Source: Escherichia phage PEC9. From it: a stretch of 44,379 nucleotides of DNA. Within the stretch, counting starts at the first letter, position 1. Each line of letters starts with the position of its first letter. A program made the translations under genes and the position numbers. The notes under the pieces are model-generated. The model saw only the letters and a list, made by a program, of their open reading frames with translations. It did no database searches and had not been told where the DNA came from. Of this stretch, positions 2,873-28,532 are shown in pieces. The stretch lies in the sequence record ON548431.1; one strand, given 5' to 3'.

Positions 2873-2880
2873 ACAATTAA

Positions 2881-2904
2881 GCCCGGTTAATTCCGGGCTT
2901 TTTA
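2881..2904 (+). terminator. Rho-independent terminator
   Basis: GCCCGG-TTAATT-CCGGGC hairpin followed by TTTTT. Confidence 0.55.
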
Positions 2905-2967: not shown

Positions 2968-3048
2968 ATGGCACGTAAAGATATTTGGGTATTAGCGATC
3001 TGGACCACCGCGGCTTTTATCGGCATGGTTATTTGCGAATTGATATAG
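2968..3048 (+). CDS. Possible hydrophobic micro-peptide (26 aa)
   Basis: Strong RBS GAGGAG 7 nt before ATG 2968; translation MARKDIWVLAIWTTAAFIGMVICELI; stop TAG 3046-3048. Confidence 0.25.
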   Translation: MARKDIWVLAIWTTAAFIGMVICELI

Positions 3049-3061
3049 CCCGCCGCCATAC

Positions 3062-3087
3062 GGACCGTGGTATATTGTCCACGGTCC
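3062..3087. promoter_or_regulatory. Perfect 9-bp inverted repeat GGACCGTGG / CCACGGTCC with 8-nt AT-rich loop
   Basis: Read directly; lies 22 bp upstream of ATG 3110; no T-tract follows, so not a classical terminator. Confidence 0.4.
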
Positions 3088-3109
3088 ACTAATCAGGAAT
3101 TAATTAAAT

Positions 3110-4252
3110 ATGCACCCGCAAACTAAAATTACCGATGAGCAATTGATCGCAGAAATTCAGGCAGGGACTACGGTTAAAGAGATTGCGAAGAAATACGGGA
3201 TTGCCCTGCGCAATGTCTATATGCGCAAAGCCCGCCTGTCGAAAAAGGGAATTGGTCACGGCAATGATGCCGTGATCCGTAAGCGCGTTGCCGATGGTTT
3301 TGGGGTTAAGCGCGTATCGGCCCTGGTGCGCGGAAATGGCGAAGAGGTCATGTCGTGGGTCATCACTGAGCAGGACAAGGAGCGCCAACTCGAAGCTATG
3401 CGCGCTGTTGTCGAGGGTATGAACAGCGAAATCACACCGGCAGCGCCTGTAAACGCCCCGCCAGTACCGATCCAGGCGCTCGACTTGCTCAACCTGTACA
3501 CCGTGTCAGACTTTCACCTGGGAATGCTGGCATGGGGTGAGGAGACTGGCGAAGACTGGGATATGGCGATCGCCGAAGACTTGTTCTACCGCTGGTTTGT
3601 CGAAGCCTTCGCCCGCGCACCGGACGCAGGCACTGCCGTTATCAATATCCTCGGGGATATGGCCCACTTTGATAGCCTGGATGCAGTCACCCCGGCAAGC
3701 GGTCACGTACTGGACGCCGACACCCGCTACCAGAAACTGGTCCGATACATGATTCGCATGGTGCGCAACGTCGTAGAACTTGCGCTGCAAAAACACCACA
3801 AAGTCAAACTGCTAATCGTCCAGGGTAATCATGACGAATCCGGTATGATTTGGCTTGCTGAGATGTTCAATACCTTGTATGAGAACGAGCCGCGCGTCGA
3901 TGTGGACACGTCCCCGGACGTCTACAAAATGGTGCAGCACGGTAAGACTACGCTATTTTTCCACCACGGGCACAAAGCGCGATTCGATGTTATCGAGCAG
4001 GTTATGATCGCTAAATTCAGACAGGCGTTCGGGTCGAGCGAATACAGCTACGCGCACGTAGGCCATTTGCACCACCAGAAGATTGTTGAATCCCGCAACA
4101 TGATTGTTGAACAGCACCGGACGCTCGCAGCGAAAGACGCCTACGCCAGTCGTGGCGGTTGGATGTCTGGTCGCAGCGCCAACGTCATTACCTACAGCGC
4201 CAACTACGGCGAAGTAGCGCGCTTAACCATTAGCCCAGAAATGTTGAAGTAA
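3110..4252 (+). CDS. HTH domain fused to calcineurin-like metallophosphoesterase
   Basis: 380 aa; N-terminal helix-turn-helix-like segment (TVKEIAKKYGIALRNVYMRKARL); phosphoesterase motifs SDFHLG, GDMAHFD, GNHDE, HHGH, GHLHH in canonical order. Confidence 0.6.
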   Translation: MHPQTKITDEQLIAEIQAGTTVKEIAKKYGIALRNVYMRKARLSKKGIGHGNDAVIRKRVADGFGVKRVSALVRGNGEEVMSWVITEQDKERQLEAMRAVVEGMNSEITPAAPVNAPPVPIQALDLLNLYTVSDFHLGMLAWGEETGEDWDMAIAEDLFYRWFVEAFARAPDAGTAVINILGDMAHFDSLDAVTPASGHVLDADTRYQKLVRYMIRMVRNVVELALQKHHKVKLLIVQGNHDESGMIWLAEMFNTLYENEPRVDVDTSPDVYKMVQHGKTTLFFHHGHKARFDVIEQVMIAKFRQAFGSSEYSYAHVGHLHHQKIVESRNMIVEQHRTLAAKDAYASRGGWMSGRSANVITYSANYGEVARLTISPEMLK

Positions 4253-4382
4253 CGACAACCAGTAATCCTCCCAGCCTGCCGATTTGGTGGGCTTTTTTGT
4301 GCCTGTTATAATCCCCATTAGATGGCAGGGCCGTCTCCTATGTTGCCGATGGTCGGCGCATATGAACAAAAGGGCTTATATC

Positions 4383-4934
4383 ATGGCAGAAATCAAAGTT
4401 AAGGGCCGACGCGCCAAACTGGACGGACGAGTCGCAGTTACCCCGCGCCGTAAACCCGGCGAGCAAACCGAGCATACCAATCTCGGACCTGAAATCGAGT
4501 ACGGAAAGCGCCGTAAAGGCGGCAAATGTGGACGCCCTACTGACTACCGATCCGTTTACTGCGACCAGCTTCGCCGCTATTTTGCCGACGCCGACGCCTG
4601 GCAGGTCAACTACTCCGATAAAGGCGCTGCGCAAGTAATACCCCGCAACAAAATGCCAACCTTCGGTCGATTTGCCGCGGAAATCGGCGTGGGCGTAGCT
4701 TGCCTGTATCGCTGGGCGCGTGCGCATGAGGAGTTCGCTGAGGCGATGGCGGACGCAATGGAGTTACAAAAAACCTTCCTGATGGAAGCTGGTGGCGTAA
4801 CCATCGCGGCGGGCTTCGCTACATTCCTGCTTAAAGCAAACCACGGCGTCCGCGACGATGTGCCGCTGGATGACGACGAAGATGATAACGGCGACGTCGT
4901 TGTGGAGCCTACCGGCAAAGGCCAGGGTGAATAA
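4383..4934 (+). CDS. Terminase small subunit
   Basis: Immediately upstream of and overlapping the large subunit (TAATG); acidic C-terminus; start ATG 4383 chosen within ORF 4284-4934, alternative ATG 4362. Confidence 0.55.
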   Translation: MAEIKVKGRRAKLDGRVAVTPRRKPGEQTEHTNLGPEIEYGKRRKGGKCGRPTDYRSVYCDQLRRYFADADAWQVNYSDKGAAQVIPRNKMPTFGRFAAEIGVGVACLYRWARAHEEFAEAMADAMELQKTFLMEAGGVTIAAGFATFLLKANHGVRDDVPLDDDEDDNGDVVVEPTGKGQGE

Positions 4935-26670: not shown

Positions 26671-28503
26671 ATGGCAGCGGGTACACTATCCGTAACGAAT
26701 AACAGCAAGGCGGTTGTCGGGGTAGGCACGACGTTTACCGCGTTTAAAGCCGGAGACTTCTTATCGCTGGTAGTGGGGCAAGTACCCTACACTGTTGCGA
26801 TCGCGTCCGTAGAAAGCGACACCGCGATTACGCTTGTGCTGCCGTTCGACGGACCCACGGCAACTGGCCTCGCGTGGGATGGCGTTAAGCGCGATACCAT
26901 GTCGCTGGCAACGATGGGCGTAACAGTACAGGCGCAGAAAGCGTTGCGCTTGATGATCGCGGACGAAAACAACTGGCGCGCAATCTTCGGAGACGAGGAA
27001 GAAATCGCGGTAACGCTGCCGAACGGGCAAGTTATGCAGGGTATGTCGTGGGGCTATCTGTCGCAATTGCTGAAGGAAGTTGACCCCGTTGAAATGCGCA
27101 ACCTGCAACAACAAGCCGCGGCATCTGAAGCAGCAGCGCTGGTATCGCGTAATGAGGCCGAAGGCTTCAAGAACGATACCAATACCATCAAGACGCAGAC
27201 CAACCAGATTAAGGCAGATACGCAGGCTATCCGCGACGCCACCAATACCATCAAGACGCAGACCAACAAGATTAAGGCAGATACGCAGGCCATCAAAGAC
27301 CAGACGAACCAGATCAAGACTGACACCGGCGTTATGAGGGACCAGGCCAACGCTGCGAAGACTGACGCGCAAGCTGCCAGCGCAGCCGCGCAGGGATTCC
27401 GCGATCAGGCCGAGGAGTGGGCGCAAAGCGTTAACGCGGATAACCTGCTAACAAAATCCGGCAACCTGGCAGGGCTTGCGGATAAATCGGCGTCGTGGAA
27501 GAACCTTATGCCTGCGGGGCCGCTGCGAATTGGGGCGCACCCCGTTGCGGACCTGGATGCCGCGACCCGGAAATGGACGCTGGAGCGTTTTACCAAAGGC
27601 GTGGCGGAGTCGTCGTGGACTGTCAGGAAAACCGTCACCACCACACCACAGAACGGCACTGTCGTCCGTGGCGGTGAGGTGGAATCGAGATATTCCAACC
27701 CAACATCTACGCAGTTCGCCCGTCTGTACTCAAGCTCTGTATTTGGTTCTTCTAACGCGGCTGTTGTTGAGGCAGAGGGTTCTTCCAGGCACGCTTATAA
27801 ATTCTATGAGGATGGCACAGTTGACTTCCGACAGTCAGGGAAGACCAACCCATTCCGCATGTATACAAATATTGGAACATGGAATGGCATAACGGACGCC
27901 ACGGCATCCAACTTGACAACTAACGGAATGGACAGGGTGGCCATTTCGAGCGGCTCAGATACTCTGGTGCACGGATATTCTATCGGCGGCACCAAACCTA
28001 ATGGATATCCAACAAAGGTTGGATATCACATGTATATTCCAGGCAATAATGCATTTGGTATTGCTTGCATGGTAATCGGTGGGGATAACGGAAAATTTTG
28101 CCGTTACTTTTTTGACATTGATGGTCTAATATATGGTTCGACCGATTACGGGAACTTCAGTTATATGAAAAATGGCACTTCTGACTTACGTGTAAAACAC
28201 GGCATCGCCCATGTTGGAGTTGACAAATCATACTCTAATATTAAAGGGCTGGAATTTGTAGAGTTCATTTATGATAATGACGAACAAAATCGAGTTCGGC
28301 ATGGCGTGATTGCACAGCAAGCAGAGGTTGTTGAGCCTTTATATGTCAAGACGCGCAAATATGTTGGCAATAATCCAGGAGAGATTGTGGAGCAGAAGGA
28401 ACTGGACACTACGCCGATGCTTCTGGATACCATGCATGTTGTGCAGACGTTGATGCAGAAGATCGAGGCTATGGAGGCCGAGATCGCGGCGCTGAAGAAA
28501 TGA
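26671..28503 (+). CDS. Tail fibre with predicted C-terminal intramolecular chaperone domain
   Basis: 611 aa from ATG 26671 (GAGGA RBS); internal repeats TNTIKTQTNQIKADTQAI; C-terminal region ending ...EAMEAEIAALKK resembles autocleaving chaperone domains of phage fibres. Confidence 0.65.
   Translation: MAAGTLSVTNNSKAVVGVGTTFTAFKAGDFLSLVVGQVPYTVAIASVESDTAITLVLPFDGPTATGLAWDGVKRDTMSLATMGVTVQAQKALRLMIADENNWRAIFGDEEEIAVTLPNGQVMQGMSWGYLSQLLKEVDPVEMRNLQQQAAASEAAALVSRNEAEGFKNDTNTIKTQTNQIKADTQAIRDATNTIKTQTNKIKADTQAIKDQTNQIKTDTGVMRDQANAAKTDAQAASAAAQGFRDQAEEWAQSVNADNLLTKSGNLAGLADKSASWKNLMPAGPLRIGAHPVADLDAATRKWTLERFTKGVAESSWTVRKTVTTTPQNGTVVRGGEVESRYSNPTSTQFARLYSSSVFGSSNAAVVEAEGSSRHAYKFYEDGTVDFRQSGKTNPFRMYTNIGTWNGITDATASNLTTNGMDRVAISSGSDTLVHGYSIGGTKPNGYPTKVGYHMYIPGNNAFGIACMVIGGDNGKFCRYFFDIDGLIYGSTDYGNFSYMKNGTSDLRVKHGIAHVGVDKSYSNIKGLEFVEFIYDNDEQNRVRHGVIAQQAEVVEPLYVKTRKYVGNNPGEIVEQKELDTTPMLLDTMHVVQTLMQKIEAMEAEIAALKK
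27178..27303 (+). repeat. 63-bp tandem direct repeat (2 units plus partial third) inside tail fibre gene
   Basis: Unit 27178-27240 and unit 27241-27303 differ at a few positions; partial third unit follows. Confidence 0.7.
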
Positions 28504-28506
28504 ATC

Positions 28507-28532
28507 AGAGGGGCCATTCGGCCCCTCTTTTT
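28507..28532. terminator. Bidirectional terminator between tail fibre and minus-strand block
   Basis: AGAGGGGCC-ATTC-GGCCCCTCT hairpin followed by TTTTT; overlaps stop of minus gene at 28531. Confidence 0.55.

Follow-up and report, generated by a model that had tools for sequence, protein, structure and literature searches.

Gene and family

The DNA analysed here, referred to as the window, is the stretch of 44,379 nucleotides deposited for Escherichia phage PEC9 (ON548431.1), and it is a complete Dhillonvirus genome. An open reading frame at 3110..4252 on the plus strand, found in the ORF list and read directly from the sequence, starts with ATG and encodes a protein of 380 amino acids, in which a helix-turn-helix (HTH) domain precedes a metallophosphoesterase (MPE) domain. 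The product is 100% identical to an annotated CDS of phage PEC14. It matches the profile of PHROG 704 ("DNA repair exonuclease") with an E-value of 2.9e-161, residues 5-380 aligning with positions 2-390 of the 390 profile positions. Codon differences from sister phages also mark it as a coding sequence: synonymous and non-synonymous differences stand at 49:1 to 115:9 (111:11 in another pair), which indicates strong purifying selection.

Homologues are present in 2,061 of about 50,700 phage records and in about 4,650 clusters at 50% identity. Carriers of the PHROG 704 HTH-MPE protein include Dhillonvirus, Kagunavirus, Jerseyvirus, the T1-like Drexlerviridae, Webervirus, and others. Since nearly all of the best 150 family representatives are 360-420 amino acids long, the fusion is the standard form of the family. 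The gene is neither atypical nor new; it is deposited and annotated in hundreds of phage genomes and has a PHROG family of its own. The PEC9 protein is a plain member of this family and is structurally no different from the rest of it. Current annotations should be read with care. In the GenBank record of BUCT825 the orthologue is wrongly named "DNA polymerase II small subunit", and both this and "DNA repair exonuclease" are transferred names. When the protein was compared with the PADLOC profiles of anti-phage defence, no family matched at E ≤ 0.1.

Domain organization

The N-terminus (aa 8-46, 3131..3247, plus strand) is a three-helix HTH of the LuxR/GerE/resolvase type. The AF2 model places its helices at residues 9-17, 22-29, and 33-45, the last of which is the likely recognition helix. 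With the single sequence, Pfam matches are below threshold (GerE, E = 0.017; HTH_28, E = 0.03). Individual family members reach E-values of 1.5e-9 for Sigma70_r4_2 and 2.4e-8 for GerE, and a profile of the N-terminal region matches solved LuxR-type domains (DesR, 6e-4; GerE, 9e-4; VraR and NarL, about 3e-3 to 5e-3). Profile searches on this segment had been proposed in the earlier note as a way of disproving its DNA-binding character, and the matches to Sigma70_r4_2, GerE, and DesR instead uphold a DNA-binding type of HTH. On profiles and model, the HTH is genuine and kept across the family; DNA binding itself is predicted.

A conserved connector follows at aa 60-106 (3287..3427, plus strand), seen in the AF2 model and the alignment. 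It consists of a beta-hairpin with the pattern PDGF-x-VKG-x-S (strands 64-73 and 79-88) and a long helix (90-106). In 60 sequences G77 and W83 hardly vary, and in the 26 N-terminal fragments they do not vary at all. No solved structure matches the connector as a unit.

The remainder of the protein (aa 126-380, 3485..4249, plus strand) is a calcineurin-like binuclear metallophosphoesterase core, assigned by the AF2 model, Foldseek, and the invariant ligands. Its motifs I-V are intact and can be read directly on the plus strand: SDFHLG (aa 133-138, nt 3506-3523), GDMAHFD (aa 182-188, nt 3653-3673), GNHDE (aa 239-243, nt 3824-3838), HHGH (aa 285-288, nt 3962-3973), and GHLHH (aa 318-322, nt 4061-4075). 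That an HTH is fused to a complete metallophosphoesterase with five motifs in this order, as first noticed from the letters, is thus borne out, the HTH half by the family-level profile matches. The superfamily motifs D134-x-H136, G182-D183, G239-N240-H241-D242, H286, and G318-H319-x-H321 lie in columns that are invariant or nearly so among 60 diverse relatives of 32-48% identity; nine residues (D134, H136, G182, D183, N240, H241, H286, G318, and H321) never vary. Motif I (DFHLG) and motif II (GD-x-x-H; GDFLH in the consensus of the family) resemble the DxHLG and GDLFH of Mre11/SbcD. The core is complete and apparently active.

The single sequence misses the Pfam gathering cut-offs (20.3 against 21.5 for PF00149, and 22.5 against 27 for PF12850). 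At E<0.01, PF00149 matches 14 of 60 family members and PF12850 matches six of the 60. A PDB search with the single sequence gave only matches to designed repeat proteins, which were judged spurious. The AF2 model has a mean pLDDT of 92 overall and 93-99 across the MPE domain, and it shows the alpha-beta-beta-alpha sandwich. When this model is used in Foldseek, Mre11 is the top match (E = 5e-8) and DP1 is next. The nearest solved folds are thus nucleases (PolD DP1, SbcD, and Mre11) and not protein phosphatases. With the family sequence profile, the only solved MPE touched is Mre11/SbcD of T. maritima, weakly (E = 0.8) and in the region of motifs I-II. PHROG 704 is, judged by its motifs and predicted fold, a divergent branch of the metallophosphoesterase superfamily.

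Flanking elements

The gene lies between two intrinsic terminators found by a terminator scan, both on the plus strand. The upstream one (2879..2900; AAGCCCGG-6 nt-CCGGGCTT, then a T-run) closes the lysis cassette and forms the upstream boundary of the unit. It recurs in the upstream regions of all six Dhillonviruses compared, and phage WF5505 has an annotated terminator there. The other (4273..4293, followed by TTTTTTG) is located directly 3' of the gene and divides it from the terminase operon; WF5505 has an annotated terminator at the equivalent place.

An extended -10 promoter-like element, TGGTATATT, is found at 3068..3076 (plus strand) by conservation and motif scan, about 34 nt before the ATG. 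TG[GA]TATATT persists in the upstream regions of all six Dhillonviruses, including those in which the remainder is deleted; the intergenic region has its conserved core here. Sites of the form TGnTATAWT occur three times in the window, all of them on the plus strand, intergenic, and just before gene starts. On these motifs, 3068..3076 is a putative promoter, and the timing of expression that it suggests is likewise putative. A Shine-Dalgarno-like AGGA is read at 3095..3098 (plus strand), 11 nt before the ATG, and is conserved as CAGGAA in relatives.

The arms of an inverted repeat flank the -10 element. As had been pointed out before, the repeat is a perfect one of 9 bp and lies exactly at 3062..3087 (GGACCGTGG-8 nt-CCACGGTCC). 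The window has seven matches (six distinct) to perfect 9-bp repeats with loops of 3-12 nt, while shuffled sequences have 1.9 ± 1.5. Because about two such repeats are expected and seven matches are found, the repeat by itself is only weakly above chance. Comparison with relatives shows that its arms decay (7/9 matches in rolling, 6/9 in WF5505, 5/9 in UAE_MI-01, and 4/9 in BMA1) despite a recognition helix (33-45) that is identical in six Dhillonviruses. A conserved operator was considered for 3062-3087 and set aside, since, besides the decay of the arms and the two repeats expected, the part that is conserved is the -10 element in the loop. The repeat is lineage-specific and probably does not serve as a conserved operator.

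Gene context in other phages

The slot before the terminase small subunit, to which significance had been attached, is seen in Dhillonvirus only. In Jedunavirus it comes after the primase gene, in T1-like phages it precedes the holin gene, in Jerseyvirus it belongs to an island flanked by tail genes, and in a Rhodobacter phage it comes after the lysis genes. A functional tie to the terminase was rejected on this ground, as the gene is elsewhere in six other genera and is insulated by terminators here.

Downstream of the gene, loci of the Kagunavirus and Jedunavirus types carry phrog_415, annotated as "polynucleotide kinase" (a HAD fold that matches the 3'-phosphatase half of PNK), and then a dNMP kinase (phrog_139). 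These neighbours are found in 11 of 79 loci, only in the Kagunavirus-like group (73-76% identity) and the groups of 51-53% identity, and are absent from the PEC9 genome. Where they occur, they fit a breakdown of DNA that may be coupled with nucleotide salvage. RNA repair by way of the "polynucleotide kinase" neighbour was also considered and downgraded, the neighbour being a HAD phosphatase with a dNMP kinase and lineage-restricted.

All ORFs of 80 IMG/VR loci were clustered in search of a conserved partner, and no neighbour family is common beyond single lineages. The neighbours most widely spread across lineages in these loci are endolysin, an unannotated protein of 590 amino acids, and HNH homing endonucleases; no inhibitor or immunity gene emerged among them. 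In NBD2, SE2, and RcLkye a methyltransferase gene is found near the gene, a possible clue to self-protection, within a span of ±8 kb that covers about one third of such genomes.

Comparison with known enzymes

Mre11/SbcD proteins, including T4 gp47 and T5 D13, share with the PEC9 protein the binuclear MPE core with DxHLG, GDxxH, GNHD, and GHxH, and DNA is the probable substrate in common. Unlike them, the PEC9 protein has no Rad50/SbcC/gp46 ATPase gene in its genome. No Rad50/SbcC-type gene is annotated in the sister genome HK1, which is collinear over 42,840 of the 44,379 bases, and among ORFs of at least 300 amino acids in the window a Walker A motif is found only in the primase-helicase. 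The protein ends about 58 residues past motif V and therefore has neither an Mre11-sized capping domain nor Rad50-binding helices; it carries the N-terminal HTH and hairpin module instead. The sequence similarity (T. maritima, E = 0.8) is not significant. Therefore, of the suggestion that this is a nuclease of the Mre11/SbcD kind, the part that stands is the kinship of fold with nucleases, and the protein is not a strict member of the Mre11/SbcD family. PolD DP1, the archaeal 3'-5' proofreading exonuclease, has 14% identity to the PEC9 protein. DP1 has an OB domain and acts in the polymerase holoenzyme, whereas the PEC9 protein has no PolD partner.

Gp48 of mycobacteriophage A10ZJ24 (Cluster A) is another phage MPE with five motifs (PMC12287305). 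In vitro it is reported to degrade genomic DNA as well as linear and plasmid DNA, and in vivo the genome of the host, to which it is toxic; it is dispensable in one host and plays a part in counter-defence (PMC12287305). Gp48 differs in lacking the N-terminal HTH, the Asp of its motif I being residue 10 (PMC12287305). The ten organism names that recur most often in the tblastn matches include no Mycobacterium phage, and therefore Gp48 is at best a distant relative.

A closer relative, likewise in PHROG 704, is Bas01_0050 of the T1-like phage Bas1 (AugustePiccard), which has 44% identity over 374 amino acids (query 6-378, E = 2e-104), the HTH and every motif included. According to a preprint, Bas01_0050 is toxic in E. 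coli, and missense and frameshift mutants of Bas1 in this gene escape DRT7, in parallel to gam null mutants of lambda. Because its loss lets Bas1 escape DRT7, Bas01_0050 is dispensable. Toxicity and DRT7 escape were observed for an orthologue of 44% identity from another family of phages and do not prove nuclease activity. The HTH-MPE family goes unmentioned in the phage Tn-seq and HIDEN-SEQ papers, and the Metis and PUA-Cal-HAD papers, which deal with host MPEs and T-even denA, do not concern it. A literature search on the genetics of host DNA degradation in phage T1 gave nothing usable. Mutants of T1 "gene 2.5" reportedly fail in host DNA degradation, a point that is given no evidential weight here.

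Possible functions

The reading that we prefer, with a probability of roughly 0.55, is that the gene encodes an accessory DNA nuclease that is tethered by its HTH, is independent of Rad50, and would act in host takeover or counter-defence rather than in packaging. The LuxR/resolvase-type HTH would hold the protein on duplex DNA. The connector of beta-hairpin and helix would join it to a C-terminal binuclear (Mn2+/Mg2+-type) core of the nuclease branch (Mre11/SbcD/PolD-DP1-like), and phosphodiester bonds in DNA would be cut without Rad50/SbcC, the HTH replacing the partner that clamps the DNA. The gene would form its own transcription unit between the two intrinsic terminators, read from an extended -10 promoter of the sigma-70 type. 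It would be accessory and non-essential and would take no part in DNA packaging. From fold, motifs, and the orthologue we infer DNA as substrate, nuclease chemistry, and the host genome as target; the probable role is one in which host or unprotected DNA is attacked or processed, perhaps feeding nucleotide salvage.

Several other functions have been weighed against this. MPE domains carry out end-healing in bacterial Pnkp, and the PEC9 protein might similarly be a 2',3'-cyclic phosphodiesterase/3'-phosphatase which, together with PNK-type functions, repairs tRNA or DNA ends cut by defence nucleases of the host. The phrog_415 gene and the P-loop kinase gene directly after it in Kagunavirus- and Jedunavirus-type phages are what one would expect of such a system, but the kinase matches dNMP kinase and not the PNK kinase, no ligase is found in the annotated neighbourhoods examined, and both neighbours are confined to these lineages and missing from PEC9. 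Toxicity is not expected of such an enzyme either, and an HTH of the duplex-DNA type would be strange in an enzyme of tRNA repair, so that end-healing is unlikely. A phosphodiesterase that destroys a cyclic or linear signal nucleotide involved in immunity or physiology of the host (cAMP, cyclic oligonucleotides, or a (p)ppGpp-like messenger), its HTH being only autoregulatory, was among the activities first suggested for this gene and is quite improbable. In both structure searches, matches of that type come after nucleases, no defence-related profile (of PADLOC or other origin) is matched, and the fusion to the HTH is near-universal in the family even though the candidate operator is not conserved. 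Both the orthologue's toxicity and its link to DRT7 escape implicate DNA metabolism, and DRT7 is a reverse-transcriptase/primase defence for which no nucleotide messenger is described.

The LuxR/GerE type of the N-terminal domain, the operator-like repeat that brackets the gene's own -10 element, and the position between the lysis and terminase operons would all suit a transcription factor, for instance one that acts through 3062-3087 on its own gene or on the neighbouring late operons, with the MPE as a regulatory or sensor module. However, all catalytic residues are invariant and therefore enzymatic activity is what is selected; moreover, the repeat arms vary where the recognition helix does not, the gene changes its position among genera, and Bas1 with a frameshift in the orthologue remains viable. 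This reading is accordingly very unlikely. Lambda encodes a Ser/Thr protein phosphatase of the same superfamily, and a Ser/Thr (or Tyr) phosphatase of this kind could reprogram host proteins. The lambda enzyme shares the superfamily fold and the metal-ligand scheme with the PEC9 protein but lacks a DNA-binding domain. The PPP signatures GDxHG, GDxVDRG, and GNHE with close fold similarity are not found in the PEC9 protein, which has GDMAHFD and GNHDE in place of GDxVDRG and GNHE, and Pfam and NCBIfam give no PPP-family match. The motifs are intact and not those of a degraded Ser/Thr phosphatase homologue, and the regulatory phosphatase proposed in the earlier note is extremely unlikely. A nuclease that assists the neighbouring terminase in the processing of pac or of ends has equally little chance of being correct: the gene is directly upstream of the terminase small subunit gene in Dhillonvirus, but a terminator and a separate promoter-like element stand between the two, the adjacency is absent in the T1-like, Jerseyvirus, Rhodobacter, and Vibrio phages examined, and Bas1 mutants that have lost the function of the orthologue still form plaques.

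Implications for virulent siphoviruses

The Rad50-independent, HTH-tethered nuclease can be extended to a more specific proposal, which is rather doubtful. Virulent siphoviruses may use an HTH-clamped, Mre11-like nuclease to break down or nick the chromosome of the host, the phage DNA being spared by the sequence preference of the HTH or by methylation that the phage encodes. The resulting ends, single-stranded DNA, or overload of RecBCD would then be the signal of infection for DRT7, and in triggering DRT7 the family would be a functional counterpart of lambda Gam.

The carriers of this gene, among them T1-like phages, Dhillonvirus, Jerseyvirus, Kagunavirus, and Webervirus, serve widely as model phages and therapy candidates. 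If the protein is an HTH-guided, partner-free Mre11-like nuclease, this would explain how small virulent phages attack host DNA and why the protein is toxic, and it would reveal what DRT7 senses.

Gene and family

The metallophosphoesterase (MPE) gene of Escherichia phage PEC9 is an open reading frame with an ATG start on the plus strand (3110-4252), encoding a helix-turn-helix (HTH) segment and a phosphoesterase in 380 amino acids. Escherichia phage PEC14 has the same region at 100% identity, and in dozens of further Dhillonvirus (HK578-like) coliphages it is 93-97% identical. In the records of these relatives the product is annotated as 'calcineurin-like phosphoesterase superfamily domain protein', 'putative phosphoesterase' or 'DNA repair exonuclease'; the gene is already deposited and named, in a common phage family. 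The window is collinear with the 44.3-kb genome of phage HK1 as a circular permutation (42,840 of 44,379 window bases) and, judged by this collinearity, is a complete Dhillonvirus genome. A 984-bp stretch (27546-28529) is unmatched in HK1. It lies at the position of the end of the HK1 record, the site of the tail-fibre gene, and may be a variable receptor-binding region.

PHROG 704 ('DNA repair exonuclease') matches the window protein end to end (E 2.9e-161). Homologues are found by tblastn in 2,061 phage records, including those of Dhillonvirus, Kagunavirus, Jerseyvirus, T1-like Drexlerviridae, Webervirus/Klebsiella phages, and Vibrio and Rhodobacter phages. HMMER, run exhaustively against 1.84 billion cluster representatives, places 4,657 clusters below an E of 1e-3 and 1,129 below 1e-30; nearly all of the best 150 representatives are 360-420 amino acids long. 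NCBI names the members 'metallophosphoesterase' or 'winged helix-turn-helix domain-containing protein'. Judged by these lengths and cluster counts, the HTH-phosphoesterase fusion is the usual architecture in a family that is very large and already catalogued.

Domain architecture

The five motifs read from the sequence follow in order: SDFHLG (amino acids 133-138), GDMAHFD (182-188), GNHDE (239-243), HHGH (285-288), and GHLHH (318-322). These, the limits of the gene, and the position of an upstream inverted repeat are all as described in the earlier note. In an alignment of 60 family representatives (32-48% identity), D134, H136, G182, D183, N240, H241, H286, G318, and H321 are invariant, and H186, H285, H288, and H319 nearly so. 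Among six Dhillonviruses, synonymous exceed non-synonymous codon differences by about 6-49 to 1 (from 77:13 at the lowest to 49:1 at the highest; e.g., 115:9). The intact catalytic centre and this purifying selection indicate that an enzyme, predicted to be active, is being maintained.

The amino-acid differences among Dhillonvirus orthologues are few and fall into two clusters, residues 294-301 and HTH helices 1-2 (I16, A18, T20, V22, E24, A26, I31, and A32; codons 16-32). The putative recognition helix (33-45) and the catalytic motifs are unchanged, with the single exception of L320F in UAE_MI-01, which falls on the position of motif V that varies.

The window protein alone gives weak HTH matches (GerE, E 0.017; HTH_28, 0.03). 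Individual family members match Sigma70_r4_2 (1.5e-9), GerE (2.4e-8), HTH_1, HTH_28, HTH_8, and HTH_23, and a profile of N-terminal fragments matches solved LuxR/FixJ-type domains (DesR, 6e-4; GerE, 9e-4; VraR, RhlR, and NarL). Because this signal is clear across the family, the earlier reading of the N-terminus as a DNA-binding type of HTH stands. After helices 9-17, 22-29, and 33-45 the models show a flexible segment, then a beta-hairpin (64-88) and, last, a long helix (90-106). In this hairpin-helix connector G77 and W83 are nearly invariant, and no solved counterpart of it was found.

The single window protein scores just below the gathering thresholds of Pfam Metallophos and Metallophos_2, so by profile it is a divergent MPE branch. 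An AlphaFold2 model built from the 60-sequence alignment has a mean pLDDT of 92 (93-99 over residues 126-380). Foldseek ranks Mre11 first (E 4.8e-8) and DP1 next, while the family sequence profile reaches only one solved MPE, T. maritima Mre11/SbcD, at a non-significant E of 0.8. DFHLG and GD-x-x-H (family consensus GDFLH) are similar to Mre11/SbcD motifs I and II. The modelled fold favours a nuclease without proving one, its margin over non-nuclease MPEs being modest. A nuclease of the Mre11/SbcD kind had been suggested, and the window protein may work like one. It is not a member of that family, two of whose defining features fail. Motif V is followed by no more than about 58 residues, so that the model has neither an Mre11-sized capping domain nor Rad50-binding helices, and the genome encodes no Rad50/SbcC-like ATPase.

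Upstream region and predicted promoters

Intrinsic terminators lie upstream (2879-2900) and downstream (4273-4293) of the MPE gene. A comparison of six Dhillonviruses shows two parts of the upstream region kept, namely the terminator and a core, TG[GA]TATATTGTCC...CAGGAA...ATG; the sequence that separates them may be lost, as in BMA1 and UAE_MI-01, or longer, as in WF5505. The core region contains an extended -10 motif, TGGTATATT (3068-3076, plus strand). TGnTATAWT occurs three times in the window, always on the plus strand, intergenic, and shortly before the point where a gene or operon starts: here, at 1637-1645 before a holin-like gene (1678), and at 4304-4312 before the ATG of the small terminase gene (4383). 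It is absent from the minus strand, with about 1.35 expected by chance per strand. This suggests that the rightward operons use predicted -35-independent host promoters.

The extended -10 element forms the loop of the inverted repeat, GGACCGTGG-8 nt-CCACGGTCC, whose 9-bp arms are perfect (3062-3087). The arms match at 7/9 positions in rolling, 6/9 in WF5505, 5/9 in UAE_MI-01, and 4/9 in BMA1, with the putative recognition helix identical in all four, and chance alone would give about two perfect 9-bp repeats in DNA of this size. The repeat is real, yet on this evidence probably not a conserved binding site.

An unannotated 26-residue ORF, MARKDIWVLAIWTTAAFIGMVICELI (2968-3048, plus strand), has a strong ribosome-binding site (GAGGAG) and a promoter-like site (TTGACT-18 nt-CATACT, 2909-2938) just past the lysis-cassette terminator. 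It looks like a single hydrophobic helix and may be a membrane micro-protein. It is kept in rolling and WF5505 with conservative or synonymous changes and cleanly deleted in BMA1 and UAE_MI-01. Downstream, the mechanical small-terminase ORF (4284-4934) begins with a TTG inside the terminator; relatives are annotated from the ATG equivalent to 4383, and this shorter form is likelier the true gene. Several Dhillonviruses have a 64-70-residue ORF between the MPE and small terminase genes (relatives' loci L010:2887-3099, L008:3031-3243, L009:2759-2953). The window and HK1 have the terminator alone there (equivalent to about 4253-4380).

Genomic context

The earlier note tied the gene to the slot before the terminase genes. 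Its position varies with the genus: after the primase and before a 'polynucleotide kinase' gene in Jedunavirus MEW1, between a helicase/methylase block and the holin in T1-like NBD2 and Bas1, in an island between tail genes in Jerseyvirus SE2, after lysis genes in Rhodobacter phage RcLkye, and among lysis-type genes adjoining an HNH gene in a Vibrio phage. On this comparison a functional tie to the terminase neighbourhood is rejected. When all ORFs from 80 IMG/VR loci were clustered, no neighbour family common to different lineages was found; the widest neighbours are an endolysin, a 590-residue protein without annotation, and HNH homing endonucleases.

In unrelated genera, HNH/homing endonuclease genes repeatedly adjoin the MPE gene or overlap it (L012:39208-39693; L006:6010-6519; matches H37 and H38 in Salmonella phages S102 and SE124_3H4), and they seem to insert at this locus often. 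NBD2 (L003:3150-3878), SE2 (L004:6902-7330), and RcLkye (L005:6544-7833) each have a DNA methyltransferase gene only a few genes away from the MPE gene, which may be chance or a hint to phage-versus-host DNA discrimination.

Function

Mutants of Bas1 (T1-like) that spontaneously escaped the DRT7/UG10 defence reverse transcriptases were altered, by missense or frameshift mutations, in bas01_0050, whose product was termed 'a nucleic acid-targeting phosphoesterase'; lambda gam-null escapers are a parallel, and Bas01_0050 is toxic in E. coli, so that co-expression was not possible (10.64898/2026.02.16.706125, 2026 preprint). The alignment of bas01_0050 (MZ501051) with the window protein takes in the HTH and all motifs (44% identity over 374 amino acids, E 2e-104), which makes it a full-length orthologue. 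It follows from this work of others that at least one protein of the family can be lost without abolishing plaques and, when produced on its own, harms the host; the defence system responds to its activity or to the protein itself. Mycobacteriophage A10ZJ24 Gp48, an MPE that unlike the window protein has no HTH, has phosphodiesterase activity; it breaks down DNA in linear, plasmid, and genomic form, and the host genome does not stay intact (PMC12287305). bioRxiv 10.64898/2026.09.04.749371, on NIR/DUF4062 NADase defence, contains 'calcineurin-like' and 'escaper', and may describe a further defence system with escape mutations in a phage MPE gene.

Several other functions are less well supported. 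End-healing with PNK-type partners draws on Kagunavirus- and Jedunavirus-type loci, where the MPE gene is directly followed by a phrog_415 HAD-fold gene and a phrog_139 dNMP kinase gene (L017:9122-10164 and L019-L038; MEW1, L002:6119-6613). The phrog_415 neighbour, annotated 'polynucleotide kinase', matches only the phosphatase half of PNK, and both genes are absent from the window. This lineage-restricted pairing fits the coupling of DNA breakdown to nucleotide salvage better than RNA repair, and the three genes may form a nuclease/salvage module. A packaging nuclease would cooperate with the terminase, whose genes lie near the MPE gene in Dhillonvirus and not in the other genera compared. 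A transcription factor with a sensor domain would employ the HTH, and the phosphoesterase has kept its catalytic residues. For a signal-nucleotide phosphodiesterase, the corresponding structure matches rank below nucleases. A protein phosphatase would come from the same superfamily; GDxVDRG and GNHE, the signatures of PPP phosphatases, are absent.

The reading we prefer, at slightly better than even odds, is an HTH-tethered, Rad50-independent DNA metallo-nuclease with an accessory role. The HTH would tether the protein to DNA, on which the metallo-nuclease would act without Rad50. Its expression would start at a sigma-70-type promoter of its own, and its role would be in host takeover or counter-defence. 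For the window protein we infer the DNA substrate, nuclease chemistry, target, and promoter use; the architecture, fold, distribution, and variable context, like the intact active site and the purifying selection, are observed. The family keeps some interest for its biochemistry and for the link to defence sensing that is emerging.
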